From contig CP158635.1 in the NCBI GenBank assembly GCA_050273025.1, positions 20,956,001-21,020,000 of the forward strand: 64,000 nt of DNA, read 5' to 3'. Shown here one piece after another: positions 21,001 through 50,700 of this stretch. The stretch comes from Cenococcum geophilum (taxonomy: Eukaryota). Position 1 is the stretch's first letter. Each line of letters opens with the position of its first letter. A model generated the notes under the pieces. The model was not told where the DNA came from. It saw only the letters and a program-made list of their open reading frames with translations, and ran no database searches. The position numbers and the translations under genes were made by a program.

Positions 21001-22069
21001 GGGCCTATCTATAGCGGTTTAGCTAGGTAGTAGCTTATAAGTAATCTTGTTCTACCTAGGGTTAGTAATAAACGTAATAAATATATTAGGACGGCCGTAT
21101 TTGCGGATAATAGCTATTAAATTCTAATAGCACTGGCCGATAAAGCGAGCCCCGCTAAGGAAGCTTAATAGAAGGACTACGCGGCGGCCTAATAATTTAG
21201 GGTCTAGATTAGCGCGGGTAAGAGCGTTTATAACGCCGTTATATAGCTCTGTACAAAGGGTAGGTTGGTGGAAGCAGATCTAGTTAAGCTTATTCTAATT
21301 ATATAGTGCCCATATATCTACGACATACTGCTAAAATAGCCGGCAGTAGGCAAAAGGGACTAACTTAGAGTGCCTACGGACGTGTAGGTAGAACTAAAAG
21401 TAGGCCTACTAGGTTAAACGGTCTCGCTAGTAGGCTTAATTAGAGTCGCGTAGCTAGAGACCCTAGTGCTAGCCAGTATCACCGCGGGGGAAGAGTAGCA
21501 CGTAGTGGAGCGGCATATATACGGCATGCGTTAAGTTAATACGGCAGTATTACGGCTACTTATTAGGCGCATAATGCTCCGCAAGCACAATGTCGCGAAA
21601 GCTGGCATTACTATACTCGCCTGGTATAATAACGGCCACCTTATTACTTATTAGGAGGTTCTTATAACGCCGATTAGCACTAGCCTCTAAGATAAGCTAT
21701 ATCTGTGGGTTTAAGATAATCCGTAATAGGGTTATTATGGGCTAAGCCTAAAGCCGTTCCCTTATAGTTTAATAGAGGGCGATAAAAGGGTTCCGTATCT
21801 TAGATTGTTGACCTAAAAATAAGGTCCGAAAATGAGGACTCGTGTGTAGTATTGAATGTGGCTCTAAGACCTCTATATATACACCAAATAGGTAATAAAT
21901 AGAATGACGACGTAGTCGTCATTCGGTAGTGGAAACAGGTAATTAGACATTCGATGAGACATATGATGGTAAATAGCGAGGTAATGAGACGTAGGGTACT
22001 AGGTATCAAAAACAGTGATAAGTACGTCATTCTCAGTTCGACATAGATAGTATAGTAGTAAGGCACTAT

Positions 22070-25000
22070 CCCTTGACACGGCAAAATTGGGCCTTACGGT
22101 ATCGATAAGAGCCCACCAATCAAACTAGCTAAATCGAGCAGCCGTTTTCAGAAATACGAAGCTTTTGATTTCATAGCTAATGTATCCAAACTCTTCCAGT
22201 AGTCCTCAATGCACGATTCTATAGTAATACCCATATGAATTAGCACTGCAAAGTACGCCCAGAGTTCTTGCTTGCATGTTAGCTACTATGTATATAGGTG
22301 TTCCTTTTCCTTATCTGGCGGGTACAACTCCTCATGCTTATTTATCCACTCTACAAGCTTATCCATAATCTTATCTATAAAGAACAGACTAAATAACTTA
22401 AAAGGATCGTGTGTATTAACGTTAGAGGGTAGGTTTGGTGAGCCATGGTCGTCCCAATCGTCAATATAAAGAGGTTCGAATTTGGGCAACGGCCAGGGCT
22501 TAGGGCAAGGTTTTTTTATAATTCGATTTAGAGGAACGTTATATTAAGTCTTCTAAACAAGGTCCGCATCAATTCTAGTAAGATTGGAAGGCATGGTGGT
22601 GGTGTAATTCATGATTGAATTCTATATAGATACGCGTTGTTTTGATCAGGCTTGCGGGTAATAAGGCCGATAAGCTTGTCTAACAAACAAGTTGTCGGGC
22701 CAACAATATCGGTCGATAAGCAACAACAATAGAATAAGTTTTCTAAAAATATCTTTAAAATAAAAAATATATCAATACTAAGGACTATAAGATATTTATT
22801 TTAAGGAATAAAAGAGTAGATTTTCTATATTATATAATAAAGAAGCTATAATAGAATACTTAGAATTCTTTGATCTGCCCAATCCTTTATATATTTAGTC
22901 TCTTTAAGTATTTTTATACTTGTTATTGTATAATCCCATAGAATTCGACGTTAAGAGCCTAAAAATACTCTCTCTGGCTTATCGCTTATTCTAGGAATTA
23001 AGAGAATCTTAATTGTAAGGAGCGAGAGCCGCGGAAACCTAAGACGCTAAGATAATTAACTCCACCAATTAATAGCTCTTGTACGAGGCTCTAGTATTAC
23101 CGGATTCTTGCTAATATAACTCTTAAACTTATCCTTACTTTGTGGACGAGTAGCCTATAAGCCTTACTTATAAATAGCTCTTTAAAAGACAGAGAGCTCT
23201 TCTTTATTGACCTCCGGCCTACCCCTTTGGGCATTATACGACGGAGTAGTATCTAGAGATAGCGCTTTATCGCGAAATCTCTTTTAGAGCTTTTGTACGA
23301 TATAGAGCTGCTTCTCTCTAGTAGTACCTATCCTGTTATTCTAATCCTTTAAGAAAGCCGTATAACGTTTAGGATTTAAAATCCGAGCAGCTAGATAGTA
23401 TGGAGATTTTAAGAGCTTTTTTGTATACTTTTTAAGCTTTTCCTTAGCTTGTATAAGGCAAGGAAGTATAAAGTTGTCCTTGCTTAAAGAAGCTAATTCC
23501 TAAAAAGAAAGAATTAGTAAAAGAAACGTAATAAGAAGTTATACGATAAACCCTTATTGTTTAAATAATCTCTTAGAGAGTATTAATTAATTTTAGAACT
23601 CTTTCTAATGTTATATAATCTCCCTAAAGAAAAAGAGTTGCGTTATAGAAAGCTTTAAGAAAGTTATAAATCGTACGAAGCTAAATCTAGTTATCTATTA
23701 TAAGAACATCCGCTTTTAGAATATCTCTCTTATAGTACTTAACATAGAGTTAAAGCCTAGCCTTTACCTAATCCTCTAGAGCCACTAATAATATATTAAA
23801 CCAGCTATTCCATCTTATACAATTATTAAGAGGAATAACTTTCTTAGCTTTGCTCTTAAACTATGTTGTATAATTTGCTAAAGAATAGATATAAATAACG
23901 TTGTTATAAAGCTTTCCCATTGGTCCTATAATTTCTTAAATATTTTTACCCCTTTTATCTAACTTGTCTTTTCGAGATAAGGGTTTTATCTTTACTTCTC
24001 CCTTTACTAGCTTTTTTGCTTATTATATAACTTCTTCTTCTAGTTCTACGGCATTCTTTTTCCCCTTTCCCCTCTTTCTAATTGGTGTCTTTATTGGTAC
24101 CGGCTGTTATATAACTTCGTCCTTACTTTTATCCTCTTCCTCCTCCGCCTCCTCCTCCTCCTCCTTCTCCTCTTCTTCTTCTTCTTCTTTCTTATCCTCT
24201 TTATTGTATAACGCCATAAGCTTTTTATGCTTCTTTAAGGTAAAAAGGAAGGCCTAAATAATAAGATTAATAACATGCCCCTAACAGCGAATTCTTTAAT
24301 ACTCCGCGTTTTAGGAAATCTTATATCTTAGCAAGAGCCATATAGCAATCATACGACATAGAACATCGTTTAAGCCCGCATTGTCGCTAACAAGAGCTCT
24401 AATCTTTGTTTTAATTCCGTACGACTTAAGAACGGGTTAAAGTGCCTCCTATTAATCCTTACTACTTTAACTGTGCACCGTATAAAGGCCAATTAAGATG
24501 TTTTGATATTAATCCTGGATATTAAGGAAGCTTACGCAGATTCCAAGTATAAGAAAATAATTAGGAGAGGTCCAGATATTAACCACAAGGTAAATATTTG
24601 TCTTTACAGACTAAAGAACTCGTTATATAATATCCTGGCTTTTAGTAAAGTGGCTGTAAATCTAATCCGTAATTATTAAGTGGTATATTGGAACGATATT
24701 AAGATTCGTTACTTCTTGGTTTAATGCTTTAACAAAAGCATAAAACTCTAGCCACTTAATACATAAGAATGGAAGCCGTCGTACGATAATAAGATCCAGA
24801 AGTGTTTGTTTAATGGTACCCTTCTCCACTATACGACGTAGAACCTCGCCTTTAAGCCCCTAAACCTCTCCCTTTACTAGAAGCTTTTTATAGAGTACTT
24901 AAATTAATTCCTTTTCTTTGTCTCGTACTGTTATACAAGACTCGTTCTCTTCCCAGCTCTATATTATATTATGTATTCTTTTAAGATAGCCACAAAGCCC

Positions 25001-25459
25001 TATTGTTGAGGTATGCCATCCTTCTGGATTATCTAGAGAATAGTATTTATAGAGGTATCTCTTCTTTGTACGAAGCTTATCTTCTTTAATAACCTCACGA
25101 GTATATTAGTGAATTAAGGAGAATTTTATAGAACCTTCTTTCGTACGACTTATTAAGGTTAAACCTATATTAGTATCAGCGCTTAAAAGACCAGAATAAG
25201 TATTACTATCGAATTTATCAGATAGAATATCACTCTAATTAGCCATTTTATCCTTTGTATAATAAAGAAAGAAGAAAAAGATTAAAAAAGTGGGAATACT
25301 AAGCCTTTATCGGAACAATTATTCCGACAAAGGCTTGTCGGGCCAACAGCTTGTTTGTCGAACAATTGTCAGACAAGAACCTTGTCGACCGCAGGCCTGG
25401 TTTTGATTCCGGTGTTCGCGCACAGACCACTTCCTCTAAGGACCCTGCCGTTTCAAGGG
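22070..25459 (-). mobile_element. Internally deleted piggyBac-like element (contains hAT insertion)
   Basis: TIR cccttga(c/a)acggca; ORF DPFKLFSLFFIDKIMDKLVEWINK..LWAYFAVLIHMGI..IEDYW is a piggyBac transposase N-terminus; flanked by AT on both sides. Confidence 0.85.
22647..25399 (-). mobile_element. hAT transposon
   Basis: 8-bp TSD GTTTTGAT (22639-22646, 25400-25407); TIR cagg(c/t)..gcgg; transposase motifs NIWTSPN..LGIC (~24570), LVSDNAGLND (~24380), RWNSW (~23810), C-terminal LLIPRIS. Confidence 0.92.
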
Positions 25460-27586
25460 ATAGAATAGTTATATCTAGCTAGGTATTAGGATGGGCCCGT
25501 AACCGAACATTTGTAACATAACTAGGGTTATAAAAGTATAGTTAGGCATACCGCGGAGCAATATCAGTAGAAGGCTCTAGCGGGCCCTATAGATAGTAAA
25601 GCTCACCATATATCTAGAAGCAATTTAGGCCGCTGTAGGCTACACTACGGTTAGTAACGGTATAGTTTATAAACGTAAAAGCCAATGCTGCATTATATGC
25701 GCGGAGCCGCTCCCTAAACTACCTAGTAGAAGTACTACGGGACTCTAAAAGATCGTGTAGATATTCTGGCGGAGGCTGGAATAGAGGGAGGTTTATATCA
25801 CCGTGCTTATAGTAGGCTTTAAAGCGTGGATTGCTAGGCTGTAATATACTAATACGTTTATTAATCTAATATAGGGCGGCGTAGAAGTTATAGGCGACGT
25901 CTATAGGGCCAAGATCTAGCTGCTCCATAATAGGGCGGATGGTAGTAATAGGACCATAATCTAGCTGCTTCGCGATAGGGTGGACCGTGATAGGTTATAG
26001 CTAAATTAATACAGGCGGTTAAAGCTAGATTGATACGGGCGGTATAAGGAGGCAGGAAGTAGAGGGAGAAGTAGCAGCGGAGGCAGTGGCGGAAGCAGCG
26101 GAGGTAGTAGCGGTTGTAGTTTGGTTTATAGGCTGCGGAAGGTCCACTAAAGGTCGTTATTAAGACCGTCCCTTTCTTTTCTCCTATATATAGAGTTAGA
26201 AGGGTAGTAAGTAAAGAGAGAATAAAAAGTATTAACCCTATAAGAGTTATAGGTCTTATACGGAGCTCCAAGACGGTTTATTGTAAAGTTAGTAGAAGAA
26301 CGATACTGCCTATAGGCGGTGCAAAATATACGATCGGGAGGCATTTAGGTAGTAATAGGGAGTAGCAACTGGGGTAGAAGGTAGAGGGTAGTAAGGGGTA
26401 GATTTAAGATTTAAGGTCGTAAGGTCGAGGTTGTAAGTTTGATAGGGTAGCACGTAAGAGAGCACGTCCCTTTATTAGGTGACTAGCACCAAATCAAACC
26501 AATTAAAGTCTTAGATTCAACCTAATTCCAGTATATGTTAGATGCCAGGCGCTTAAACTAAAGACTATTTAAATAACAATCTCACGTTTAATTAGATTTA
26601 GTACTTTTATAGGCAAAGTACTGCTTAATAGATAGGTGCGTATTAGCTACTATTACTAAATAGCTACGGTTTATACCTTATAAAGGAATTTATAAAATAT
26701 TATAAGGAGAAGAATATCTATTTATTAGCTCTTCCGCCCTATGTAAGCCACTTTCTATAACCGCTTAATATTGTTCTCTTTTAGCCGTATAAGCACTACC
26801 ATAAATAGGCTATTAAGATAGCTGTACAAATAAGCTGTATAAACTTTAATATTATTAAATTCCTCTACGCTCTGCACTAAATTTACACAGCTATATTTAA
26901 GTTCTTATCTATCCTATTAGGATGAGCAAAGATTAGCCTTATTCTATATAATCCTAAGGTTATATTAACTAGATTACAACGTTAAACTACTATAGTACGT
27001 CTATCTACGCCACTACCTACAATACTATAACTACTGCGGCCACAACCTATAGCGCTATAAATACTAGATACGCCGCGTAGCTTATAGATAACAATAAACT
27101 GGGTTCGCAGCTTTATTATTAAGCAGCCTAATAGGGAGAAAAATCCTTTATTAATACTTTATAAGAGCACTAGAAAGAATACCATGCTTTACTTATTAGC
27201 AGAGGAGGACCTATATTTAATATAGGTAGTAATATACGCCCGTATAAAGCGTTAAAGGACTAACTAACAGGTTGTTTAAAAGGGAGGCTTAATATCTACA
27301 GTAGATGGACGGCTTAAAGTATTATAACGAGTTTAAAAGGAAGCAGAGAAGGTAGGTAGGGCGGCTATACATACAGTAAAGAAGTGGGTAAAGAAGGACG
27401 CTACACAAAGCGCAGAGGTCTCAGACTCGTGATATTTGGCAGGATTATAGCTAGGCTATTGCTTAAGGTGCTCTACTAAGGATTTCTATATATACGTAGC
27501 CTACGTAGATATCTACGGCTTTAAATTCACGTGGTAGGGCTCGTGTTCCGTTAAGCTCGGTATTCCGTTAAGCTGCGTAGGACTAT

Positions 27587-30500
27587 CCCTTTATGTGGCA
27601 AAATGCAATTTTTAATTGGGGCGTATTTAGCGTCCTACTTCATCTAGCACACCTCGGTTAGGCCAGTTAGTGGCGTTTTAGTAGACCCCACCACTAAAAA
27701 CACGAAAATTAACCTAATGGAAGGATGCTTTAAAAGGCCACCATAAAAAGATCATTAAATTTTTTTTTAAAGAAGTTAGGCAGAAAGTTGTAATATATAA
27801 TGTTATAGTTATACGTTCCTACCCTTCCTCTATTAACCAGCTGCTAATTATATAGGAAAATCCTCTATTAGAGTCCCCTAAATCTTTACTACCTATACCC
27901 TTTATACGCGTTCCTAACGTTAATAAGGATAAGCTAGTAGAGGACCAGCTTAAAGTTATAAGGGAGGACGTATTGTATACATTAAATGAGGTGTATTAGG
28001 TGCTGTAGGTAATTAAACGGTTTAGTTAGCGATTATTTAGTGTAGAGGCTTAGTTAAAGGCAGTAGAGGAGGGCTTAAAGAAGACTAAGATAGACGCTGC
28101 GGTAAAAGCTTAATTAGCTTTAGAGCTTTAATATTAGAGGCCTAAGGAAGTAGAGGATTAAAAGTAGTTACCTAATTATTGCCTACTAAATAAAAGTTGG
28201 CAAAGCACTATAGGCATAAAGGAAGCCTACAACCCTCGCATTTATATACTGTTTATTTTACCTTTAATATAAGCTTCCTTGCCTACTTCCATCTACACAT
28301 TTAGTAAGTTAGTAAGCCCTTATAGCCCTATGTCTTTAAAAAGCCTTTAACATAGCGGTAAGTTCGCGTTTTACACCATTAAATTATAGGTAGTGGGGTT
28401 TTAGCAGTAATATAAGTTTTTTAATTCGTTCTAATATTTCTATAACTAGGCCCAACACCAGGTTAATATTACCTATATTTTAGTAAGCCTAAATAAAGAA
28501 GACGCTTAGTATCTTACTTATTTATACCTATTTACTAACTGCCTATAATAACAAGATTCCATACTAATTATATATAGAAGCGGCAATGGGTTTAAAGAAA
28601 GGGCTTGCTTAATATTTAGAAGATCTTCTTACTAATAATATAGGCGTTAATTATAGACGTATTAAGCGCCTAAAAGAATAAGGGCATCTAGGTATAAATA
28701 GTAGTAATCTAGGTAGTATAGTAGCTTTAAAGTTAATTATAGATATTAACGCCGCCTATTTAATTATTGTAGTCGATAGAGAGCCTAGGAAGTGTTAACT
28801 TCTTAACTAAATTATTACCCTAAATATTATCTACTAGCTTCTTAAGGAAGGAATTATATACTCGCGGCTAACGCCAATTAACTTTATTAATATCCTTATT
28901 ACTATATAAGTAAGCCGTTATTAAAAATTGTACTAAATTTTTATCCTACTACACGATTAAAAGCACTAAATTAACTATGCTAATAACTATTCCTATAATA
29001 AAGTTAAACGGCAGCCTTACCTTCCTTTTATCAGCCATTTTATATACCTCTAAATAGGCTTTTAAGTTTAATCGGGCCGTACCAGCTATAGTAATTCTAA
29101 GTTATTAAAGCACCTAGAGCAATAGAATATTTGTAAAGTACTTATCTAAAAATAAGCAAAATTAATAAGCCTAAAGAGGAAGCTATTAAGTAAGGTAGAG
29201 GACGCATTTAAAGGTATTTAAGAGAACAATACCTTAATAATCTGTTTGAGAAGAAAGCCTAAACAAGTAGCCAGGTAAGGTAAATATAAAGCTATAGTAA
29301 TATCTATATTAATAAAGGCTCATTATCTTAAAGCCCTTAAGTATTAGCTTACTAGGCAATTTAATTATAGTTATAGATCGTCTAGTAAACCTTACTATTA
29401 TCTTATTAAAGCTAACTATAGATCTAAGTATAATGTACTTTCTAAACGCCTCGCCTAAAGGAGATATTAACGGCTTAATCTTCTTAAAAACCTAATATTT
29501 AATGCCTTTTAGTAGAGGTAGTAATACGTAAAAAAAGCGCTTAAGTTACTCCTATTTTTTTAGCCTATAAATAAGCTAATTAAGTATTTAGGATACTTAG
29601 GATTTACGGCCCAAAGATCTTACACTTAAGGAGCTTTAAAGACGCCTATATAGATAATAAGTCCTACTTAAATCATTAACTTACTAGCAGAGGTCTCCTT
29701 CCACACCCGTAATTATTTACCAGCGTATTATCCTAATTAGTAATATCCACTAGTATTCTAAGAGGCTATATAAAGGTTTGTGTTAATTATAAGATTCTTA
29801 AATATACTAATACTAAAGAATAGTAGAAATACTTAAATCGGTAGGTCTTATCTAAATCTATACCTACTAGTATACAGTAAGCAGAGCGCTTAGTATCCTT
29901 ATTTTAAGTAAAAGGATTAGATTTAACGTCCGCGCTAAAGCCGCTAATAAGCTTATTAGTACGCTAAGCGGCGAATATTAAGTTATCTAGAAGGCTAATA
30001 ACTTTAAGATCTAGCTCAGGAACAACGGCTATAGGCTCCTATATAGTAGGAACGGTAGGAAGGCCTATTTTTATAACTTCTTCAGCTAATAGTTTTGGTA
30101 ATTTAGTCTTATCCACCTTATCTACCTTATCCTTAGCTGTCTTACTATAGGCCTCAAAAACGGCTCCAAATTTGTCCTCCTTAATATCCTTACTTAGCGT
30201 TACCACTGAAGCCTCTGGAGGCTGTATAACTTCTACCGCTAAGCTATTATGTGTATACTATATCGCTTAAAACGATTATAAATAAGACTTCTAGGCTTAA
30301 GGTGCTTTTGGAGGCATCAGAGCCCTTAGGGGTTTTAAAGCTTTTAGGGCCTTTAAAGGCTTTGCAGCTAAAGACGCATAACGTTTTTTTAGGCGGCATA
30401 AAGACGATATTTTGCTAAGAACTTAATAATTAAATAGACGGCAATAATATTGAAGCTTTTTAATCGATTACACTACTATATATTCTATATACAGGCTTCC

Positions 30501-30682
30501 TAGCCACGTCGCTACTGCTCACTGCAATATTTAAGCGTCAGATAAGGCGCCTACACCCCTACCACCGAGCAATCGCATTAACTAGAGGCTTTAACATTAA
30601 GCTATTTATGGTATAGAGCCTCTAGATTGGCTTAAAAGGCATATATATACGAAAAGTGTATGAATTCTTGCTATATAAAGGC
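27587..30682 (-). mobile_element. piggyBac-like transposon, RIP-degraded
   Basis: Ends ccctttatgtggca / tgctatataaaggc; transposase relics VRFTRRS..KLPSKLILKGFK (~29380), LFLDKYFTN (~29150), IGGVNI (~28750); AT duplicated at 27585-86 and 30683-84. Confidence 0.82.
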
Positions 30683-30719
30683 ATGAGCGTAAGCCAATAG
30701 TCCGTAGGGCGGATAATAA

Positions 30720-33074
30720 GGACCTGTTTAGTTCCACTGGAGGTATTAGTTTCTAAATTGAGGTGGTCATAGCTTTTGGCGCATTTTAGTGTAATTCTTC
30801 TGCCGCGTCTAAGACGCTATGTTAATGGTGTAAAATTAAAGACCTGTTTAGTTTAACTACCATCTAGAAGTTAACGGAAGGACTACCTCCCTTACCTCTA
30901 CCTTCTATACCTACTACCTATATAATGTTAACGCGCACGCCTATACTAAGAGGCCCTATATTCTAAATACAAGACGAATCCACCTTATACTTACCCTTAC
31001 CCTTACCCTTACCCTCTAACTATAAGCGTTTAATTATACCTGGAGAAGGATAGAGGGGGCTGTTAGTATAGACTTTTAATATAAAGGAGGCTCTGCTTTT
31101 AGGCTTAATATTAAAGGCGATTAATAAGGGAATACGGGCCGATTCTAGCTATAAGAAGTAGGCGTGGGAGTATACCATGCAGGCTGTTTATAAAAAGGCT
31201 AAAAGGCCTAATATAGAGCTTAAGCAAATAAAATTAAAGCACGACTTATATAAGAAGGACTATAAGGCTTAGGTTAAGCTTAAGAGTTAATTAGGATTTA
31301 GGTGGGATAAGAGAGGCTATCCTACTATATTAAAAAAGGTCCTTAATAATTACTTTAAGGCTAATTTAGATGTAAGGAAGTTCCGATATAAGCCTCTAAA
31401 GCTTAAGAATCTGTACTACTAGTTATTTGCTAATATAATCGCCACTAGTAAGTAAGCTATAACCCTTAGTAAGCTTATAGAGGGCGATAAGGCTACCAAT
31501 GATAATTATATAGAGGATAGTACTGTTATTAGTTTAACTAAGCGCTTAACTATACCTAGTTAGTAAAGCTCTACTTCTAATTTAAATAAGGATAATAGTA
31601 CTGTTAGCAACTTAGGAAATAAGCAGCTACTAACGCTGCTTTTACCGCTAATACTTAAGCTAGGAAGAAGAAGAAGGACGGAATAATATTAACTAATTGT
31701 TTAGGTTAGAATCTTACCCAAATAATAAAGCAGCTTACTATAATAGTAGACTTAATAATAGATAAATAGGCTTAGGCGATTAAGCTATTTATAAATTAGT
31801 TTAAGGACCTAGAGTTTAATTAGTAGCTTATAGTCGTTACTAAATTTAAGAAGAAGTTTAGTATAAAGCCATTTGTAAACTTAGGCTAACGGAAGTATAT
31901 TTAGTAGGTTTATAAGCTATTAAGAGAAGCTAGTAAGGATATTAAGTAGATATATTAGATCCTAGCGTCTTTTAATAAGGACGAATGTATACAGCTTAAT
32001 CTTAATATTAAGGAATTTAAAGAGGTTAAGGAAGTTAAGGAGTAGAATCTTAATAGAGTTTTTAACGCTGTATATAATTAGCTTATTACTACTCTCTTTT
32101 TCCTAATATCTTTATAAATATTTGCCTATAAAAATAGGGATAGGGAGTTTTATTAGGCCACTCGCTTATAGAATTAAAAATATATAGCAGTAGTAATATA
32201 TTCTAAGATTTTTAAATAAAAGCTTTATATATTACTACTAGGACGTGTAGATATACGCCTATATTATATATCCAATTGCCTAGTAGTAGTCTTTCTACAT
32301 CTTATTCGCGATTTCCTCCCGCCGCTCCTATATAGGCCTTATATTAATTAAATCCTTATTATCTACCTCCAATAAACGGTTAACTATAGAACCCTTCCTT
32401 TATTGCTCTAATTCCTTATTACTAAACGGCTTAAAATCCTCCTAATTATCTATTATATTATAATGCGGATTGATGAGGTTATATATAGCAGTAAGTGCAT
32501 AAATTAGCTTTAATTAAGTGCGTAGGTTAAATTAATAAGGCCTATTAAATATCCTCTAACGGCGCTTAAAAATACTAAAGGTACGCTCTATTATATTCCT
32601 AATACTTAAATAACAATAGTTAAATAGTTTAAACTTATTATTAGGCGCTCTCTCTACCTTTTTAATCTCCTTTAGATAATACCTTACGCTTTAATATAGC
32701 GATAATATTATATTTAAATTGGTGTACCTAGTATTGGCAAGATAATATTAACCTAGAGGAGCTTTAAATCCCTTGCTTATAGCGTCTTTAAGAACTCTAC
32801 CGTTATAAGTAGAGCCTTCCTATCTAGGTAGAATATAGGTAAAGCTTATTCTAAAATTAACCACCGCTAGAACGTTTTATATAATATTGCCGTATTAATT
32901 TTAGTATAGAATCTGCTTATCTATAGGTATATAGGTAAAGATATATAAGCTATTAAGGGCGCTAATATAATTAGTAAAGTATAGCTAACACTTAGTAGAT
33001 TTAAGAATCTCCTTTAGCATCTCTATAGGTGGGGGTTTAATAATTTAATAGTAAAGGTATAATAGAGCGTCTAG
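30720..33074. mobile_element. PIF/Harbinger transposon (Myb/SANT-like ORF on +, ~30900-31950; DDE transposase on -, ~33074-32250), truncated by Gypsy LTR
   Basis: TAA followed by GGACCTGTTTAGTT terminus; plus-strand AWEYTMQAV..KHDLYKKDYKA..LGFRWD; minus-strand NVLAVVNF..EGSTYNGRVL..YYLANTRY..RYYLKE..NIIERTFSIFKRR. Confidence 0.85.
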
Positions 33075-36000
33075 TATAACGAAGCCTTATAGCAGGAACT
33101 ACGGTAAACTTATTAATAGGCTAGGTATATAGGTAAACAAGAAGTTAACAACGTAATAATAACTAGTGGAGTGGTTACCTAATAGATTAACTCTAATTAT
33201 ATTCTAAGATTCACTATAAAGAGAAGAACTATTTGGGTAGGGACTATAGTCCTTTAAATACATAACCGTACTCCTAAGAAATCCTCCTTATATATAAGGT
33301 ATGTCTTATATATAAGGTATATAAGTTCCTCTTATTCCTCTTATTTAATATATAGTACGTTATATAACCTTAGTTACTATTTCTCATTATATAGTTCTAT
33401 CGGCTCTATCCTAAACTATGCCTTAATTAACTAACTAGCTACTTTTAACTCCTTTCCTAGTAGTTATAATATTATACTTAAAGCGTCTATAACACTATCT
33501 CCCTCCTTTCTATCTTTATCCTTAAAGACGCTTAATATCTCTAAGTTGTTTATTAGAGGTGTAATATATATCTAATTAATTTAGTTAATATTATTACTTA
33601 TTATACCTAAAGCTTCTTTTTCTTTATACGCCTAACGTTATACCCGCACTATTACTGCAATATTATTGCTTAGTAAAATTATACTATCTCCGTGTTCTTA
33701 TTATGTAAAAGAGGAATTAGTTTATATTATATTAGCGAGCCTATCCTCTTAATAACCGTTTTCTTATTTAGAGTACACTAAAGCAAATATTTATTTATCC
33801 TATAACGTTTACTCTACTTCTAATACTAAATATACATGTCCTATTATTCTTAATAATTATTTAGTTCCTTAGTTAATTTATCTTAGGGTTTTATATTTAA
33901 TCTGCTGCTACTTATCTTAATAGTAAGTTATTTTAAGCTCTTATTGGGTTAAAATGTTCTTATAATACGGAATAGAAGGCCCTAAATACTTATATTACGG
34001 CATCTGCTTAATTACTTTGTCTTAAAAAGGGTTATAAGAAGGTTTATTTTAAGGAGTAGAAACTTATAGAATAAGGTTTATAGGAACTTAATAATAAAAA
34101 AATAGATTCTCTTTTAACCGGGAAGGAAATAGATCTAAGTAGTTTAGCAACTACTCTTCTTAGGTCCCCCTTAGGTGACTTATTTTTTTATAATCCTTTT
34201 TTATTAATGCTACTTAACCTAATCTCTTTTAATACTCCTATACCTTTCTTATAGCGTTTTTTAGATTCTTTAGTAGTTCCTAGGTAGTCTTATTATAGCC
34301 TATCTACTTAACCTTGTACTATATTTTATTATTAATATCCTTATAACTAAGAATTCTTAAAACTTACTATTTATCTTCCTTTTATTCTTTATACATGTCT
34401 ACCTTATAGACTAGTAGCTTAATATCCCTATATATTAGCTCTAGTATTATAATATACTATATAGGGTAGATCTTTATCTTAGCTAGTAGGTTTAACTTAA
34501 ACGTAACTGGTGAAATTCTTTATATAATTTTAAAAGGTCCTAGTCTAATATAGTCTAACTTCTTACTTAGTTATTAACTTTTGAAATTCTTATATAGTAG
34601 CTATACTTTATCCCCTTCCTTAAGATCTAGTCCCTTAGATCTCTTAGCGTTATAGTACCGTTTCATCCTTTCTTATACCTTTTTTGCTAATTCTATAAGG
34701 TCTATATAAAGATTTATTAGTATCTTTATTCTTTCTTTAGCTATACTACTTATTTTCTTTACTTATTATGGTAATAATGATATTCTTAGCTTATATCCAT
34801 AATTTACCTTAAATAGTAATATGCCTATTCCTTCCTATAGTGTTATATTATATATAAACTATACTATTAGTAATAATAATGCCTAATTATTCTATATATA
34901 ATTAATATAATATCTTAGATACTATTCTAGTGTCTAATTTAATTTTTCTATCTATCTGTTCATCTGCGGATAATATATAGTAAAAGTTGCTGCTCTAACT
35001 CCTTATTCTACTAAGAATACTTTTTAAAATACTACTATAAATCTTAAATCCCTATTTAATATAATTTTGCTTAGTGCTTTATATTTTATAAATACTTCTT
35101 TAATATAGATTCTAGCAATATCCTCTACTGAGATTTCTTCTATATATACTATAAAGTAGCCCTATTTAGTTAACTTATCTACTATTACTAAGATTATATT
35201 ATATTCTTATCTGGTAATAGGATCTTTTAACTTTAGTAGCTTAATAATAAAATTCTATAATATAACCTCCTATAGTCTTTTTAGTATTTTAATAGGTTAT
35301 AGCCCTCTGTATAGCCTATACCTTATTAATTTATTCCTTTAGTAATCTAGACACTCCTTTATTACTTTTTTAGCTATACTTTAGATTCTGTTAATAATAT
35401 ATTCTTCCTAAAGTCTTAATACTAAGCCTATTGCTCTATTGTGTCCTTAAGTTATTCCCTTATAGAAATCTTTTATAAAATGCTCTGCTATGCTTTTTAG
35501 GATATACTTTGCTTCTTAATTTATATATATATCTATCTATAGATCTTCTAGTTATACTTTTAGAATTCTTTATATTTAAAAGTTCTCTAGTATTTTATAA
35601 ACTTTTTTTAGTTTATTATCCTTTTAAGTTACTACTAGCTTAGGGTAATTATATTTAATTAATCTATCCTTATCTCTACGTAGTATTGCTTTTAATAGTT
35701 TCTTATTATTTTATAGTTTAACTTTTCTGCTAAGTATATCTGCCCTTATATTCTTAGTTCCTTTAGTATACTAAATCTTAAAATAGTATTCTATAAGCAT
35801 CTCTACCTATCTAATCTATTTTTAATTAAGTTCTTTTATTATTAGGAACCCTATTAGGTTTTTATAATCTATTTTAACTATAAATAGTTTCTCTACGCCT
35901 TATAAGAATACTCTTTATTTTTTTTAGTACTATAACTATACCTAATAACTCCTTATTATAGACGTTATAGTTTAACTCTAGTAGTGTTATCTTTTAAATA

Positions 36001-39000
36001 TAGTATACTACTAAATGCTATATATTCCTATACTTTTATAGTAAATATACTTTTAGTATAAAGTCTAATACATCCGTTTCTATAACCGTATCTAGTCCTA
36101 GTTAGTAGATTTTAAGGATTAGCTCCTAAGTAAATAACTCCTTAAGTTTCTTAAATAGCTTCCTTTACTCTTTTTTCTATACCTATAGTTCCTCCTTCTT
36201 TATAAGCCTAGTAAACGGTTTAATATTCTTTAACTATTATACTATAAACCTTCTATAGTAGTTACAAACCCCTAAAAATAACCTTAACTATATTATATTC
36301 TCTAGTTTTTACTAACTTAGTATAGCTTTAATATTTTTTAGGTCTATACTAATATAACCTAGTTTAATAATAAATCTAATAAAATTAGTCTTCCTTATAA
36401 AGAACTCATATTTCTTAATTACTACTAGCATTTATTCTTCTTATAGTTTTTTTAAGACCTATTTAACATATTCCCTATATTTTTCCTTAGTTATTAAGTA
36501 GATAATATTATTATTAAGGTATGCTATAATAAACTTATTAAGGTATTCTTTTAATATACTATTAATTCGTTTCTAAAATATTGCTAGTATATTTATTAAT
36601 CCGAATTATATAACTAATAGTTTATATAATCCTTCTCTTAATTTAAAGGCTACCTTTTATTTATTGCCTGCTTTAATTCTAATCTAATAGTATGCCTATT
36701 TTAGATCTATCTTTATAAAGATTTACGTATTACCTATTTAATCCTAAATTTTGCTAATTAAGGGTAAAGAATACCTATCCTTTTAAGTAATGCTGTTTAA
36801 CTATTTATAGTTAATATATAGCCTAAGTTTTCCGTTCTTCTTTAGTATAAATAGTACTAGATAACCTGCTAATAACTATAATAGTCTAATATATCCCTTT
36901 TATAAGTTCTTTTAGATAAACTCTTTAAGTGCTTTTAACTCCTTTTAAGTAAGCTTATAGGTTAGAAAGAACCTTAGACTTATTTCTAGTTCTAACTCTA
37001 TTTTATAGTCCTATACTATATAATTTACTAACTTTTTACTTTTTGGGCTCTATAGTTTCTTACTATATTTATAGTATCTTTTTAGTATATAACTTAAGCC
37101 TCGCTTAGTCTCTTTATATATCGCCCTAACTTAGTACTATACTAACTTAGTTTGCTATTATATTTTATAGCGTTAAGTATTTTTAATATTAACTTAACCT
37201 GTTATTTAATTAATCTTTAGATTATATTTCTGTAACTAAGGCATTCCTAATACTGCCTTATTCTATCCTAATAGTAGAATATTAAAAGATATCTTAATTT
37301 ATCTTCCTTTAATAGTTATTTAAATAGGTTTTATTTTAAGGTTAATAATACCTTTTTTATAGGCTATCGGATCTCCTAAAATTATAACTAATAGGTAAGA
37401 TTGTTCCTTCTACCTATAAGGTAATCGTATCCTTTTAACTACTACTAGTAAGATATAGTTCCACGTTACTTTACTATCTATTAATACTTTAAACTGTTAA
37501 TCCTACTATTTAATCCTTAAATTTAGGTATTATTCTTAAATTCCTTTAAGGGTCTAAGGCTTTATTACTAGCTCCCTTTAGTTTTATAGGCCTCTACTTT
37601 TCCTAACTATTAGCTACTTAATTCTTATATACTTAGCTTACCCTTTAGCTAATACTTAGTTCGCTTTTTATCTTCTATATACTATAGACATATATTCTTT
37701 AAACATTTCTACTACTATTATTTATCTAAGTATTCTTCTATAAGGAATCTTCCTAGTTAAAGTATTAGGTCCCCTAACTCTTAAACTTCTATTAGATACT
37801 ATCTATATATATATTTAGCATTTCTATACTATTACTTATCTAGCGCCTAATATATCCTTATAGGGTACTTCTAATTCTTTTCTTTTAGATTCTTATGCAT
37901 TTTATATATATTATCCACGCATATAATCTATAATAGCGTATAGTATACTAGGTGCTTTAGGTTAACTCTTAACTCGTCTTTATTTTTAAGTTTAAACCTT
38001 TACCATATTAATCTAAACGTTACGACTTTATTTATAAATACTAAGATATATTTCTTATTTCTCTAGATCCTTTAATGTTATAATTAAGGCTCCTTTAATA
38101 TAAGTTATGGCCTTTTTTATAATCAGGTGGTCCTAAATAACTCGCTTATCCATCTATATATAGAAATCTTCCTACTTATTATTATATTGCTATTTATACT
38201 ACTTTTAGTATAGCTATTAGAGTATATACGGCTTATTTATAAGGAAGTATCTTCTTATTACTGTATTATAACAGCCCTTTATATATTATTCCTTAAACCT
38301 AATAGGGATCCCTAAATCCTCTTCGTTTTCTAGTTTAGTAAGCTACTTAGCCCTTAGTATGCCTACCCTAGGCCTATTAGTAATTCTTTATATAGGTGCT
38401 CTGTCCCTTATACGACCTAGTATACTAGATCTTTTATCTAGTTTCTATTCTTACTATATAATAATTCTTTACCTAAATTCTTCTATAGTTTCTTTTGGTT
38501 TGCGTCTTATAAGTAAATCTTTAAAGTTCTCTTACTTCTTAATTATAGTATTAATATTTTAATCCTATTACTAAGCCTTACTTATAATTTCTTTAATAGT
38601 CCTTATTCTATTGCTAAAATCTTAGTCCTATAAAATTCTTAATCCTAAGCTTACTTCTATCTTAAGCTTAGCTCTAGCCTTAGTTTAATTAGGCTTCTCT
38701 AGTATTCTTATTTCGTCTTAAGAGTCTTAAATCTTACTTATCTTATCTTAAGAGTCTTATATTTTTAGGAAACTTTATTCTAAGCTTATTTATATATTAC
38801 TAAACTAAGCTATTACTCTACTCTATTAATTATTATCCGTTATAAGTTCTTAAGTTAATTTTATCCTATCTTAGGATTCTTAAACGTTTTATATCTCTTC
38901 CTAAGAATCTTAAGCTTGTGGCCTTTTACCTTTATTAAATACCGAAGTAGTTTACTATTTTACTTCTTTTGCGTTTTATAAAGTAATAGATATTATATCT

Positions 39001-39723
39001 AGTAGGGTCTTAATCCCTACTAATAATCCCTATTCTATAGTGGAATTATTCTTTACCTTTTTTTATAATATCTCTAAGGTCTATATACTCCTAATAAGCT
39101 GCCTTTATTACCCCATTATTATAGAATACTTTGCCTATATTAAATTTATTATCCTTAATATCTAATTTATAAGATAGTTTGTTGGTTTCTCTAAACTCTA
39201 ATAATTTTAGCTCTTATAGCTAATAGCTTACGCCATACTTAGCATTTTCATAAATTTAGTATGCGTTATTATAATAAAACATAAAACTTTTAATTAAATA
39301 TTCTTTTATTCCTTATAGTATATTATTATCCCTTTATATATATATATCGTCTACTAGTCTCGTTCCTTTTACTATATAGTAACTCTAACTACTTCTATAG
39401 TCTTTAATATAGTAACCCTATTTTCCGCAATTTATATAAGCTCCTTTTTTAAACCATTTTTCTTACTATAAAGTCCGCCTAAATATCTTCTGCTATTAAG
39501 ACCCCTAGTTTAGCCTCTACTTCTTAAACCTTTAATTACTTAATCCTTATTCTTTAGGTTTCTATAGTTATTTATTTTATTTCTTATTTTTTTTTGTACT
39601 ATTTAGGTCTATTAACTTTACGCTATACTATAGTTTTTAACTTTAGCTTTATTATTGCGTGCTCTGCGCCTTATATAACTATAGAACTTTATCCTAACCC
39701 TTTTTAGTCTGCTCTCTTTAGTA
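33075..39723 (-). mobile_element. Second long Gypsy chromovirus copy, 5'-truncated within gag; 3' LTR 33075-33494
   Basis: Reverse complement collinear with ~6800-12300; PPT aggagggagatag then TGTTATAG; LTR 3' half matches the family, U3 part diverged. Confidence 0.92.
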
Positions 39724-40399
39724 TATTGGCAAAATATGGTACCCTTCCAATGGCCTTAATGTTAGTGGTTAACGCAATTGGCGCGCAGTTAAGGGCATTT
39801 AGCAACCCGACCAACTAGCCTATGTTATGTTTTTTTAACACGCAGCCTGCGCGCAGCCTGCACGCAACCTGCAACTATAATTGTATTTGGAGCTATCTAC
39901 CTCTTTTGTACCAATAGTATATTTTAGATAATAAATAAAGGCTACTTTAAAGCTATTTATAAGGCTAATAAGGCAAATTATATATACTTCCTTATACAAT
40001 CTAATATATTATTTTAGACAATTTAATATAATATTCCAACTATTTTATAATATATTCTAAAAGCATAAGACCTTTCCTGCTCTCCCTGCGACAATAATAT
40101 AATATAAGTATTTAGCTTTACTAGCATAGCATATATATATAGCCAAAAAGTAGCTACTAAGAGTAGCAGATATAGGCCGAAAGAAAGGTAGATTAAGAGC
40201 TAGTATATATAATAAAAAAGCCGTAATTATCCTATAGAAGAGTATAGAAAGTCCTATACCTAATCTCCTACTAAAAACTCTACTAGCTTCTCTATACTAG
40301 AGTCCAGAGTATATATTATAAACTTTATATACTACTCCTTATTCTTAATTAAATTTAATATTACTTTCCCGTTATTATACTAGCCATAGCTATCCTCTG

Positions 40400-45369: not shown

Positions 45370-46710
45370 CTTATAAGCCTCCTCCTATCTATTTTATATC
45401 TCCTCCGTCTTAACAAGCTTAATTTAACATCTAGATTTGTTAATACTTTATATATATATAAATTTAATCTCCATTATATTATACTACGTATAATACTGCA
45501 TATATAGCCTCTAAGCTATGGCGCTATAGTTCTATATATATAAATCCCTTCTAGGCAGCTTAATATATACTAGTAACTATATTTGTTAATACTTTAAGAC
45601 GCCTAGTTAGCCCTTAACTGGTAGAGCCTAGTTAGCACAATTAGAGGTCCTAACCTCCGCTAAAATACTTAATATCCCTAATAAGGGCCAGAATATTATT
45701 AGCAAAAATAGAGATATTCTACTATAAGTTAATAAGATCTTAGGTCCGTTTAGCTTAACGGAGAAGTATCTAAGCTTTTAGTACAATCTTCTAAGAGAAG
45801 ACACGATTAAACCGTTAAGAGAGGTAGTGGTTTAAATTAAAGTAAACCCTTTTAGTTTGCTAGAATCTGGATATAGTAATAGAATCGGTATATATAAATA
45901 GGTAAGCATGCTACAATTCTAAAGTAGTTATCCCCTAACATCTGCAAGGCCTATATTAGTTTAGTAATATTTTTACCTTAAGGGCTAGTAATCCGCGTGG
46001 CGTTCTTACTTAGGAGAGTAGGGAAGATAATCCGTTAGGATTAGTTAAAAAGACTAGTTACCAAGTCTCTAGTTGCTTTAACTCCTAAGACTAACATTTT
46101 TCAAATAAAATATATACTCGCAATAGCGGCGGTAAGACTATTAGCCGTATTAGAACAGAATCCTCTAAAGGTTAACTTATTCTTTAAGACCTAAAGAGAT
46201 TAAGATTAACTTATCCGTATTATAGATAATAGTTAAGGAACAAACTAGATTTTACGAAGTTAGTCGCTATACTATATTAGCATTATAAAAGCTAATAAGA
46301 AAGCTGTAAGTGTGCAATATTTTCTAAATAAGAAGATATTTAACCATTAATAGATTCCCGTTATTAGAACACCTTATTTAAGTTTAATAAAATATTAAAG
46401 CACTATAATACGTTATAAATAAGCCTTATACGGATCTTAGCTTAATTATAGCTATTAAGGATGCTTCCTTATTTAAGAATATTTATATTCTTAAAGACTA
46501 GCCAGATATAACTACTATAGGGCTTAAAGCTACTGCGCTAAAACGAGTTCTTATAAAGCGTCTTATAATAATCTAAGGACCTTTAGGCACTAAAAAAACG
46601 TAGCTTTAAAGGCGTTACTCAGCAATATAACAATAGGAGATTCCCCCATTATTATTATATATTATATAAACTATACGCTAGACCAGTTATCTAGGTATAT
46701 TGCTTAAAGT
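45370..46710 (+). pseudogene. 5' half of Hrr1/SAD-3 (ZNFX1-like SF1) RNA-silencing helicase gene, RIP-degraded, introns retained
   Basis: A*LAQLEVLTSAKIL..VNKILGP..YNLLREDTIKPLRE..[intron ~45902-45948]..IRVAFLLRRVGKIIR*D*LKRL..LVALTP..AVRLL..LEQNPLKVNLFF..FYEVSRYTILAL..[intron ~46306-46353]..LKRVLIKRLIII*GPLGTKKT (Walker A relic)..PIIII..NYTLDQL. Confidence 0.82.
45451..45580 (-). mobile_element. 130-bp LINE 3' tail insertion
   Basis: 16-bp TSD atttgttaatacttta (45435-45450, 45581-45596); reverse complement matches ~14495-14600. Confidence 0.88.
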
Positions 46711-46829: not shown

Positions 46830-47010
46830 TATATTATCCTGCCATTGTCCTACTATTATATTATATTGTCCCATATTATTCTACCATTATCCTACTATTA
46901 TATTATAGTATCCTGCCATTATCCTATTATTATGCTATATTGTCCTATTATTATCCTACTATTATATTATATTGTCCTATTATTGTCCTGCCATTATATT
47001 ATATTATCCA
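46830..47010. repeat. Minisatellite (attatcctgcc/attgtcctat units)
   Basis: Visible degenerate tandem repeats. Confidence 0.85.
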
Positions 47011-47605
47011 ATCCCCATACCTAAAAGAACTGGAGCTCTTGCTGTACCTGGCCCAAAAAGACTAAAACCAACTAAAAGAACCCTGCAAAATACCTAGAGA
47101 AACCCCCTAAAATGCATGCATCGCAGGGGAGGTATACGTTAAACGACGGTGGTTCGCACTCGCGCGTGACCGCCAGAACTACGCCTAGCAATGGCCCTCC
47201 ACAATAAAGACGGGCGAATACCATACTATAAAGCGGAAATACCCTTATTAAGAAGGCATCGGATAAAATATAAAGCCTATTAGACGCGTCTAGTACCTAA
47301 AACTATAGGGGAGTAACCGTCGGCTATAACAATTTAACGCAGCTAGTAGAATAGCTCCGCCAGTCTAGCGAACCTTAGGCGCCCCTTTAGTAAACCCTTA
47401 ACTAAATCCCCTAATAGCTAAGTAAAATTAAAAATAAATAAAAACCCCCCTTACCGGTAAACCGCACCTGGGCCGCTATAGCTACGCTACTATAATATAG
47501 GGATCTTACCCCCCTTAAGACAATAACTGGGTATATAATTATAATATAACTAAATATAGAAAAAGCAGAGGGGCTTAGGGGATAATTAAAAATAAAAGTC
47601 CTTAT

Positions 47606-47724
47606 CCCATGCGCCGTCGATATAGGCGCTATGGTAAGCGAACCAACCAAATCGTCTAGATTTTTGATGTTCTGGTGTTTGCGCACGGGCCACAAATCAT
47701 GGTAGCGCCTCGACGGCGCATGGG
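47606..47724. mobile_element. 119-bp MITE with piggyBac-like CCC...GGG ends
   Basis: Perfect 15-bp TIR cccatgcgccgtcga / tcgacggcgcatggg; AT on both flanks; not RIP-mutated. Confidence 0.88.
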
Positions 47725-50700
47725 ATAGAGATCTGTAAAGAGGTTTACGACGCTATTATAATCCAATACCTTAGAAGCGGAGATATTAGAATTACCCTAA
47801 AGGACTAATAGGCAAAGGAATAAGCTATAAGGGTAGGGGATAGGCTAGGAGAATATATTGGCTTAAAAGTACTCCGTAAAGACTACCTAGTTAAAGTCCT
47901 AGCGGTTCCTATAAGCCTTAGGGTAGAAAAGGAACGCTAGGCGGATAATATAGCAATTATATAGGAGATAGTAAGATAAACGAAACGCCTTATACTAGGA
48001 CTTAAGATCACCTAAATCTAATAGCTTTAATAGAAAAATGTAAACTAAGCAAATAATAAAAATAATAAGAGGATATAAGGGTTACTAAAGACTTACCAGG
48101 GAGACGCTGGACGAACGTATAGCTCCCTTATTATTAGTATATATACACTAGGAATATAAAAACTCCTTATTTAAAAAGGAATAATTATAAACGGCCTTAT
48201 ATATAATATAAGGCTCTATAACTATAGACTACGCCTAAAACAATGCTATCGCTATATATAATAGGGATATACCTAATCCACATATATAGTATAGGTGTGC
48301 TATAGCCACTATATAGGTCCCTATAATATAAGATACTGCTTAAATTAAGACTAAATAAAATGTGTAAACTGCTACTAAAGTATATATAAGGCATAGGAGA
48401 GAGAAGACTGTATTAAATACAGGAGATAAAAGGTAAGGGCTTAACAGCTACGGGAATAACTACACGCTAGGTTATATAAATAGAAATAACGGGCGATAAG
48501 CTAGGGGGGCGTAAGTACCTTCCTAGTATTTCCTACCTTTAATACTAGGGGGCTAGGCTAGCCATCTTAAGCCTTAATGGGCTAGAAGTAACGCTGTGCG
48601 ATATTACTAGACTATATAGGAATATAAGGGTTATAGGGGATATAAGGGAGAGGACGCCCTATAGGAAGACCCTTATAGACAGCTATAGCAAGCTTAAGAC
48701 CAGGATAATTAAGAATTAGACTTAACGCGGCAAATATAATATTTATAGCCAACTCTTAAAGGGTATATAGCTAACTAGTAAGAATAGGGGAGGAACTGGA
48801 GATAATAATAGATTTAGATATAGAAGCGCTAGTAGGAATATAAGATATAGGAATAAAAAGCTTTATATAAAATAAGTAGTAACTAGGGTTTAGATATAAG
48901 AGATAGAAGTTCTAAATATCCTGGAGAAAGTAGAAATAGAAGAAGTAAGGAATAATAAAAAGGTAAAAGACCCTTGCTAGGGGTCCATCACCTATCTATT
49001 ATATAGTATAACTATAGCAATACAAACCACCGTCTTGTAAGGCCCTTACTAGACAGTTTAGACCTAGAGAAATACTATATCCTTACTATATAAGAGCCGT
49101 ACTATAATACCTACATATAATCGATATACTGCCCCTAAGGATTTTAGCTCCTATATAAACCAAAAGTAGTTACATGCGTATACTTTATAATTAGTAAGGC
49201 TATTAGCCTATCCTTATAGTTATAGCAGGCAGTTAATCTAGATATTATAGTTATAACAATCCAGATATATAGGGGTCCGGTATAAATTATTAATGTATAT
49301 AACCCTAGGGTTAAAAGTATCCCACAAATGGAGAATATTATATTAGTAATAAGCTTACTTAAAACCAAAGGCATAGAGTCTATTCTATTAGGAGATATAA
49401 ACCTCTACCACCCGCGGTAGGGGGGTATCTATATCATTACTAAACGGTAGGTAGAGTGCCTACTAAAAGCTATAAACACCTAGGGCCTTAAGCTGGCTAC
49501 CCCTCCTAGAGTAATTATATGGTAATAAGGATCCGCCAGAAGTATAATTAACCTTAGATTTATAGACGAAGGCCTATACTAGAGACTTAAAAGGTATAAC
49601 CCTAAAGAAGAATAGGCACTTATTTTAGACTATATCCCTATCTAAATACAGCTAGATTTAGACATTAAGGCGTAACTAAATAGTAAAAGATATATAATAA
49701 GGATGCTTAAGGCAAACAGTTTCCTTAATATAGTTAAATAATAACTCTAAGACCTAGAAGAAATCCACCTAATACCAAACAAGTAAGGCTTATTAGCTAC
49801 CCCTAAGGAAATTAACCGAAGACTAGAAAGAATCTAGGCAGCAATTAAAAATAGGCTAAAAGAGTACAGCCCGGTCTTAAGACCGGGCCCCTATACGTAA
49901 TATATATAGTCCACATAATGCGCGGTTTTTATAGCTAGCTAATAATAAGTAAAAAGGAAATATATAAGCAGCCATAACCTTAAAGATAAGAGACGATATA
50001 AAGACATAAGAAACTAGTTAAAGAATATCCTAAAAAAAAAAGTAAGGAATAACTAGAGACAGTTTATTAAATATTACGTGTCTATACATTGCTTGGCCGA
50101 AAACCCTACAACTTAGGTATTTAACTAGATGTTTAACACGGTTAATAGCATTATCGCTTGCAACTGCACTTAATAGGTTGTTCTTTTTATCATAGATTAC
50201 TTGCGATTAGTGTTCTGAGTGGCCTATATAATTTATTAAGGCCTATAACCGACTTTTCAGCCAATAGTACCCGCTCGAAAACTCCTCGCTTAACTGCCCT
50301 ATTATCTACCTCCTTATCTACTATCCTATTTACCAAACATACTATAGTTTTATCTTTAGAAGAAGAAAGAGCTAGGAAATAAAATAAGAGGGCCTAATAA
50401 CTCTATAACCTAGAGATCTAAAAGAAAGAGTAGGAGGAATAGGCATAGATCCAAAAGACGGAATAAGAGGAATAGGCACGGATCCGAAAGACGGAATAGG
50501 AAGATGAGTTTTACTAGGCAAGGCTAGCCGCTCTAAAGCAGCCTACTCCACTAGAGCACCCCTCTACCGCTAAGGCGGACGAACTAGGTAAGTCCTATAA
50601 CCTACCGGAAGGCTTGGGCACGCTTAAGCTTAACCTCCCTAGCCTAGCTAGAAGAGACCTCTACGATATATAGAAAGGATCCTTCCGCTTAGAGAATCTA

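Follow-up and report, generated by a model that had tools for sequence, protein, structure and literature searches.

A probable TATA-targeting, AT-duplicating branch of the piggyBac superfamily in the fungus Cenococcum geophilum

Three AT-flanked insertions in the window

The stretch examined here comprises 64,000 nt of the Cenococcum geophilum genome (CP158635.1); we refer to the whole of it as the window and use window positions throughout. The window was read in six frames, with stops rendered as X, and the translations were matched to Pfam. It holds three insertions with like termini: two with transposase remnants, here termed E1 and E2, and a miniature inverted-repeat transposable element (MITE). 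These start with CCC, end with GGG (GGC in E2) and have AT on both sides, the wider flanks being cTAT...ATAg for E1, cTAT...ATGa for E2 and tTAT...ATAg for the MITE. An earlier account made from the letters alone (the sequence-only reading) had taken them for a piggyBac-like family that duplicates AT, and the termini and AT flanks it described are borne out at all three places. The features, including terminal inverted repeats (TIRs) and target-site duplications (TSDs), are the following:

22068..22069: AT copy left of E1, within the TAT flank 22067-22069
22070..25459, minus strand: E1, starting CCCTTGACACGGCA and ending TGCCGTTTCAAGGG, with flanks ctAT...ATag
22070..22646, minus strand: 3' part of E1, with the 3' TIR (22070-22083), the relic of the transposase N-terminus and a copy of the hAT TSD (22639-22646)
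22647..25399, minus strand: hAT element of 2,753 bp nested in the 5' region of E1, with TIRs CAGGCTTGCGG and CCGCAGGCCTG and a decayed transposase on the minus strand
22639-22646 and 25400-25407: 8-bp TSD of the hAT element, GTTTTGAT
25408..25459, minus strand: 5' terminal part of E1, the 5' TIR ending at 25459
25460..25461: AT copy right of E1, within the ATA flank 25460-25462
27585..27586: AT copy left of E2, from the sequence and the comparison of the Pogo TIRs
27587..30682, minus strand: E2, 3,096 bp, starting CCCTTTATGTGGCA and ending ...TATAAAGGC, with flanks ctAT...ATga
28550..29841, minus strand: decayed E2 transposase with many stops, matching DDE_Tnp_1_7 over 2-69 (29590-29841) and 103-349 (28640-29491)
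30683..30684: AT copy right of E2, the next base being G, not A
47604..47605: AT copy left of the MITE, from comparison with a paralog of its host
47606..47724: MITE, 119 bp, CCC...GGG, with a perfect 15-bp TIR starting CCCATGCGCCGTCGA and flanks ttAT...ATag
47725..47726: AT copy right of the MITE, from the same paralog comparison

E1 is not the 3.4-kb element for which it had been taken: the nested hAT accounts for 2,753 of its 3,390 bp, and alignment to short elements in two related loci (L051, 96%, 602/629; L052, 93%, 587/629) identifies its core as a 629-bp internal-deletion derivative, which corresponds to positions 1 to ~520 plus ~2120-2220 of the full-length element. The hAT retains a transposase relic of its own on the minus strand (Dimer_Tnp_hAT, E = 2e-4, ~22926-23121). 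What is left of the E1 transposase is a stretch of 132 aa (22148-22543) in which positions 1-69 of the DDE_Tnp_1_7 profile are matched at 22175-22408 (E = 1.7e-5); a search with this relic gave seven relatives with up to 73% identity (73% to P0001).

The E2 transposase is near full-length on the minus strand, with DDE_Tnp_1_7 matches at E of about 1e-7 for each of two frame pieces. The claim that two of the three insertions encode transposase relics thus stands for E2, which has a near-complete one, and has to be restricted to the N-terminal part in the case of E1. The first and third catalytic aspartates of E2 read as asparagine (SFNKII and GGVNIYN), and because of these two positions the copy is predicted to be inactive. 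Its termini are decayed, with GGC at one side, and it lies in the right TIR of a Pogo-like element. E2 represents a second lineage: relatives such as P0011 (672 aa) have ~25% protein identity to the E1-type. With the E2 core as query, a word-based protein search gave no match and an exhaustive one gave 628 relatives at E <= 1e-3. The MITE has in its interior a 24-nt subterminal motif (47670-47693) common to the 5' ends of E1-type elements. Direct BLASTN comparison of E1, E2 and the MITE with one another found no similarity, and the link between them emerged only via their relatives.

To judge from their sequences, all the window copies are dead: E2 is full of stops that arose by transitions, the hAT splits E1, itself a deletion derivative, and the MITE is non-autonomous. 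Between 16500 and 32000, transitions make up almost all of the changes that set the window apart from paralogous contigs; those from X5 contigs comprise 273 A>G, 234 C>T, 257 G>A and 256 T>C changes, with 5-12 of each transversion. This bias fits decay of the repeat-induced point mutation (RIP) kind or driven by deamination, and the catalytic D-to-N changes of E2 would belong to the same pattern.

Flanks of the related elements

Using an alignment of the relatives of the E1 relic, we retrieved 55 related metagenome loci, in which element ends were located by BLAST with both ends of the L012 element. This yielded 36 5' ends and 31 3' ends in the loci, together with both ends of E1; after addition of E2 and the MITE the totals are 40 5' ends and 35 3' ends. 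TAT precedes 39 of the 40 5' ends, the exception being E2 (CAT on that strand), and ATA follows all 35 of the 3' ends. This collection of copies by their TIRs, which the sequence-only reading had proposed together with a flank profile, therefore gives 74 of 75 ends that fit TAT/CCC...GGG/ATA. The flanking by TAT and ATA exceeds chance, their background in the same DNA being 4.1%. It holds across many TIR subfamilies, for example those with CCCTTAACCCGCCGGC, CCCTTGCAACGTCAGG and CCCTTGACACGGCAGG; CCC itself starts 39 of the 40 listed 5' ends, with CTC in one. At position -4, 57 of the 73 symmetrised flanks have C or T. No TTAA-flanked end is present among the 75 from the window and the 55 loci. 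These counts support YTATAR as the preferred site, with TATA as its invariant part.

Six loci came from genome contigs, and L058 and L059 alone among them gave interpretable TIRs. These two are distant relatives in which the same TIR finder recovers TTAA/C..G/TTAA, and they serve as controls. L053, a 31%-identical relative, is without recognisable TIRs, and a scan of viral contigs gave no relative.

Some of these loci have features of their own. L059 and L061 are TTAA-flanked piggyBac-like elements on contigs of up to 2.77 Mb from an assembly labelled as a bacterial metagenome-assembled genome; the contigs look like mislabelled or contaminating eukaryotic DNA, or else the host is an unusual one. 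At L013 9730, L037 10124-10739 and L043 6987-7134, members of the family are inserted within or next to one another: in the first, one copy contains a further E1-type 5' end, the homologous position being uninterrupted in the other matched copies; in L043, a 148-bp MITE-like copy stands beside a full element.

Empty sites and a net gain of two base pairs on insertion

Because the AT next to the ends is invariant and self-complementary, it could be part of either the target or the TIR, and empty sites are needed to decide. There are 26 complete elements (23 in the loci and three in the window), and for 15 of them, E2 and the MITE included, the fetched DNA holds paralogous, uninterrupted copies of the host sequence. 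The joined flanks were scored against the empty copy after removal of 0 to 6 bp. In 13 of the 15 events, removal of 2 bp is the unique best fit with every paralog. The filled sites have TAT before the element and ATA after it, and the empty sites typically read ...TATA...; in some diverged empty paralogs transitions have altered the site, for example to TGCA or TGTA. A 4-bp duplication is the best fit in none of the 15 tests. Since a single AT is already present in the empty sites, one member of each AT pair is derived from the target, which contradicts the view of AT as an invariant part of the TIR with no duplication. Of the proposed two-nucleotide stagger with a YTATRR preference, the net gain of the element plus 2 bp is upheld, and the site is to be amended to YTATAR. 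Unoccupied sites lie in the window itself:

16946..16949: unoccupied TATA within the intact left TIR of the Pogo-like host, mirroring the place where E2 inserted and used as its empty-site control
14481..14482: central AT of an unoccupied TATA, homologous to the site of the L004 element
9451-9452 and 37052-37053: unoccupied sites corresponding to the L019 insertion

The Pogo-like element that received E2 provides an internal test. Its left TIR (~16916-16990) aligns without gaps to the reverse complement of 27440-27586 joined to 30685-30800 only after E2 and exactly 2 bp are removed; under models of 0- or 4-bp removal a 2-bp gap is required. A single transition difference adjoins the E2 site. 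The match between the two TIRs that the sequence-only reading obtained by taking out E2 and one AT is thereby reproduced.

The MITE lies in a long interspersed nuclear element (LINE), and the earlier proposal that taking out the MITE and one AT restores the LINE frame agrees with a paralog. In L041 (near 3098) a copy of the host runs through without interruption as ...tttttatagagat..., the corresponding window sequence being ...ccttat, the MITE, then atagagat...; the LINE reading frame KVLIEICKEVYDA is open, and an endonuclease-reverse transcriptase domain follows on the same strand (49283-49583, plus strand), 1.7 kb downstream of the MITE site.

For E1, contigs of other runs (two from X6 and one from X7) join 22067 to 25460, skipping 3,392 bp, which is 3,390 + 2 bp; other contigs join 22066 to 25462 with three letters in between. 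Of the contig joints, 15 were listed out of a longer set (90 more); none of the 15 spans E2, which carries no weight for that element.

The transposase and its affiliation

The DDE_Tnp_1_7 domain (PF13843) is far better preserved in relatives of the window copies: it is matched at E = 3.3e-40 in exon 1 of L007 (E1-type), 2.1e-51 in P0011 and 2.7e-60 in P0015. The sole relatives of P0011 with solved structures are piggyBat (9c0f, E = 4.5e-17, residues 125-515) and the piggyBac of T. ni (6x67, E = 2.7e-16, residues 120-388). The DDD triad is invariant in alignment A2 (D245, D342 and D473), the corresponding motifs of L007 being VDET, LDNLF and GVDIADQ, and a Y-N motif before the third catalytic aspartate is kept in the fungal proteins. 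A Cys-rich C-terminal domain, unreadable in the window copies, is likewise defined by invariant positions of A2 (C605, C608, C632, C635, C642, C645 and H650); its Cys pattern recurs in exon 2 of L007, L038 and L004 and aligns with the C-terminus of piggyBat.

By the homology of their transposase, these elements belong to the piggyBac superfamily. They also have the short TIRs of piggyBac, with a C-start (typically CCC) and a G-end (GGG). The TTAA target with its 4-bp duplication is lacking (0 of 75 ends; a 2-bp gain in 13 of 15 events), and they are therefore best described as a variant lineage related by its transposase and not as canonical piggyBac. Nor do they have the hallmarks of the Tc1/mariner/pogo elements: the empty sites hold TATA, and DDE_Tnp_1_7 is the only transposase domain found inside E1 and E2.

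A quick maximum-likelihood tree was computed from 35 rows (3 E1-type, 8 E2-type, 2 TTAA controls, 3 other loci and 19 unlabelled representatives), chosen by length among 150 listed matches; it is unrooted, and no TSDs were assigned to the unlabelled rows. The E1- and E2-types fall on one side of a branch with 99% support in the SH-like approximate likelihood-ratio test (SH-aLRT), and the two TTAA controls fall on the opposite side. The tree is no more than compatible with a single origin of the TATA/AT targeting.

Apparently intact copies exist among the relatives. L007 (7895-10114) has perfect TIRs, a 57-nt GTAAGT...CAG intron and an uninterrupted frame of ~643 codons, and L038 resembles it. 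The P0015 cluster comprises 18 members; 15 of them are listed, and 12 of those have the full length of 653 aa, every one recorded from a contig or contigs of its own.

A proposed mechanism

We consider it likely that these elements constitute a fungal branch of the piggyBac superfamily which transposes by cut-and-paste, inserts at YTATAR and duplicates the central AT. The homology of the transposase, the termini, the TATA target and the net gain of 2 bp are direct observations. The components of such a system would be an RNase-H-like DDD transposase of the DDE_Tnp_1_7 family with its C-terminal Cys-rich domain and TIRs of the form CCCTT...AAGGG, along with deletion derivatives and MITEs. In the piggyBac of T. 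ni, a TTAA hairpin arises when the 3'-OH, once freed, attacks 4 nt into the flank, and the same conformation of TTAA is recognised in the target. By analogy, excision in the fungal branch would generate hairpins at the ends, the attack reaching only 2 nt into the flank, and would leave self-complementary 5'-AT overhangs that could re-ligate seamlessly to TATA, and strand transfer would have a stagger of 2 nt, not 4. The Y-N motif of T. ni piggyBac contacts position A-2 of the flank, according to the structural account of that transposase (PMC7351741), and the A at -2 and the T at -3 are common to TTAA/CCC and YTAT/CCC.

A broader proposition, for which the balance tilts only slightly to the favourable side, is that a whole fungal clade of at least two lineages ~25% identical to each other, and maybe the entire 29-row side of the tree, reset the spacing from 4 to 2 nt and the target from TTAA to TATA, keeping seamless hairpin excision and including intact copies.

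Several points weigh against the AT-duplicating interpretation. Two of the 15 empty-site events depart from the rest: for L009, removal of 0 and of 2 bp tie beside a difference in poly-C length, 2 bp being the fit by eye; for L038, the best fit is 0 bp, with a paralog diverged at the junction. All the empty sites are paralogous repeat copies, with flanks 64-94% identical, and none is allelic. Most of the related loci come from three related assemblies, such that the many insertions represent few host lineages. The joints of contigs across E1 have short sides of 19-24 letters at 90% likeness and possibly originate from repeats; because of this, and because paralogous repeats are their probable source, they lend weaker support than the other sites. 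The geometry of the piggyBac dimer is said, in the passages of the cryo-EM report that treat it, to mandate an offset of 4 bp (PMC7351741), and because of this a 2-nt offset would require a changed geometry. Finally, a 2-nt stagger and a blunt insertion give identical sequences.

Alternative readings of the junctions

The last of these points underlies the rival that survives best, though we regard it as unlikely: the true ends would be T-CCC...GGG-A, inserted with a 0-bp stagger in TA^TA, and nothing would be duplicated. It predicts exactly the filled TAT CCC...GGG ATA and the empty TATA that are observed, and the T and A beside CCC and GGG are as invariant as CCC and GGG themselves. The 2013 report on a truffle element also set 'TA' outside the TIRs in its description (PMC3864998), and eukaryotic elements without TSDs exist, Spy being one according to its account (PMC4122938). 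The TTAA-flanked controls L058 and L059, however, begin directly with C. A 0-bp stagger is, moreover, unusual for DDE transposases. The TIRs of piggyBac elements start with C, the motif given for 157 elements in a superfamily survey being C[C/A/T][C/A/T]... (PMC5381638). Because superfamily TIRs and those of the two controls begin with C, a duplicated AT is favoured over blunt insertion; adding to these the rarity of a 0-bp stagger, we keep CCC and GGG as the reactive ends by parsimony.

It is very improbable that the elements have a TA TSD of the Tc1/mariner style around T-CCC...GGG-A, as published for the truffle element (PMC3864998, in its description of the ends), even though TA does flank a T...A-ended element at 74 of the 75 ends. 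Under such a duplication the empty sites would have just one TA and fall 2 bp short of those seen, and the comparison of the Pogo TIRs would need a 2-bp gap; the corresponding removal of 4 bp (the T..A element plus TA) is not the best fit in the 13 events, the empty sites typically read TATA, and the transposase is DDE_Tnp_1_7 and not the DDE enzyme of Tc1/mariner/pogo.

Scarcely credible is a canonical TTAA target with mutated flanks, or AT or TAT as the outermost TIR without duplication: the DNA of the window does decay mostly by transitions, and the 2017 survey, where it treats non-TTAA flanks, blames mutation for them (PMC5381638), but TTAA offers no base on which C-to-T or G-to-A transitions could act, the subfamilies agree in 74 of 75 flanks, there is no 4-bp direct repeat (the left NTAT differs from the right ATAN), and the empty sites hold one AT.

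Comparison with known systems

With canonical piggyBac and piggyBat (6x67/6x68 and 9c0f) the AT-duplicating elements share a homologous DDD transposase of the DDE_Tnp_1_7 family, a Cys-rich domain, short CCC...GGG TIRs, a palindromic target of A and T only, the A at -2 and T at -3 of the flank, and the Y-N motif. They differ from canonical piggyBac in the target (TATA, within YTATAR, versus TTAA) and in the net gain (2 bp, AT, versus 4 bp); protein identity to it is low.

The closest published counterpart is Ti_tr1 from the mating-type locus of Tuber indicum (Belfiori et al. 2013, PMC3864998). As described there from a single copy, whose presence distinguishes two T. indicum strains, it measures 2,351 bp, has TIRs of 52 bp and encodes a DDE_Tnp_1_7 transposase in three exons; it lacks TTAA, its TSDs are given as 'TA', and it is called piggyBac-like with an 'unclear' classification. 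Compared by description only, it resembles the present elements in its ascomycete host, its intron-containing DDE_Tnp_1_7 gene, its lack of TTAA and its 2-bp T/A flank; on that description it is most likely an element of the same kind. Beyond what its report describes, the present family gains AT at TATA empty sites, has many copies and MITEs, and comprises two transposase lineages.

Two further systems are comparable in part. PiggyMac of Paramecium is a piggyBac-family enzyme acting on a conserved central 2-bp A/T dinucleotide that is retained once after excision of the internal eliminated sequence (IES); it differs, in the account given of it, in being a domesticated excisase, in its TA dinucleotide, in its 4-base 5' overhangs and in their processing by non-homologous end joining (PMC3464196). 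Tc1/mariner/pogo elements likewise have a 2-bp duplication of A and T only, and TA would stand beside the present ends if T...A were counted as element; unlike these, however, the elements here have an unrelated transposase, and the TA of the former comes from a TA target whereas AT here comes from TATA.

A 2017 survey of the superfamily, with an ascomycete element among those covered, puts down rare ATAG, TTAT, ATAT and ATAA flanks to mutation in the part dealing with them (PMC5381638). These are exactly the 4-nt flanks that a TATA/AT family produces. A mining study of 2025 kept TTAA-flanked elements only. A full-text literature search for a TATA/AT-duplicating or non-TTAA piggyBac lineage gave only the 2013 truffle paper, Repbase lying outside its coverage. 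The caution on novelty voiced in the sequence-only reading was hence well placed: the truffle report, in its description of that element, already has an insertion without TTAA and with 2-bp 'TA' flanks (PMC3864998). Novelty is accordingly pre-empted in part, since one truffle element is in print as lacking TTAA and having a 2-bp A/T flank. As far as the searched literature goes, what is new is the TATA target, the duplication of AT (not TA), the two lineages with their derivatives and MITEs, and the intact candidates.

The TTAA target and 4-bp duplication are treated as a defining and universal property of piggyBac. A natural lineage with a TATA target and a 2-bp gain would indicate that offset and target can evolve; it would explain the 'odd' fungal flanks of earlier surveys and correct the 'TA TSD' reading of the truffle element. 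This fungal branch will be missed by pipelines that require TTAA. Its members are also candidates from which seamless transposon tools directed to another target site could be developed. If the clade-wide resetting to 2 nt is true, they would also supply a naturally retargeted piggyBac with which to study how the offset depends on the geometry of the dimer. For the annotation of the genome, the window copies are ordinary: dead relics nested among other transposons.

Hosts and neighbouring features

The host of E2 is a Pogo/Fot1-like element at 16916-30717, with a DDE_1 domain at 26608-26808 and TIRs of ~75 bp. The same host carries a nested block of ~8.8 kb (~17751-26548) that contains E1; the block is absent from contigs of other runs, in which 17750/17752 is joined to 26549/26547. 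Immediately to the right of the Pogo-like element, a Myb_DNA-bind_3 (Myb/SANT-like) domain is found at 31087-31314 on the plus strand (E = 3e-6). Upstream of the MITE there is a ZNFX1-domain match at 45967-46200 on the plus strand (E = 7e-7). The window also has two long AT-rich stretches, at 6000-12000 and 34000-40000, with opposite GC and AT skew (+0.26 and -0.27); these are inverted copies of one retroelement family, with homologous points at 9451/37053 and 7224/39300.

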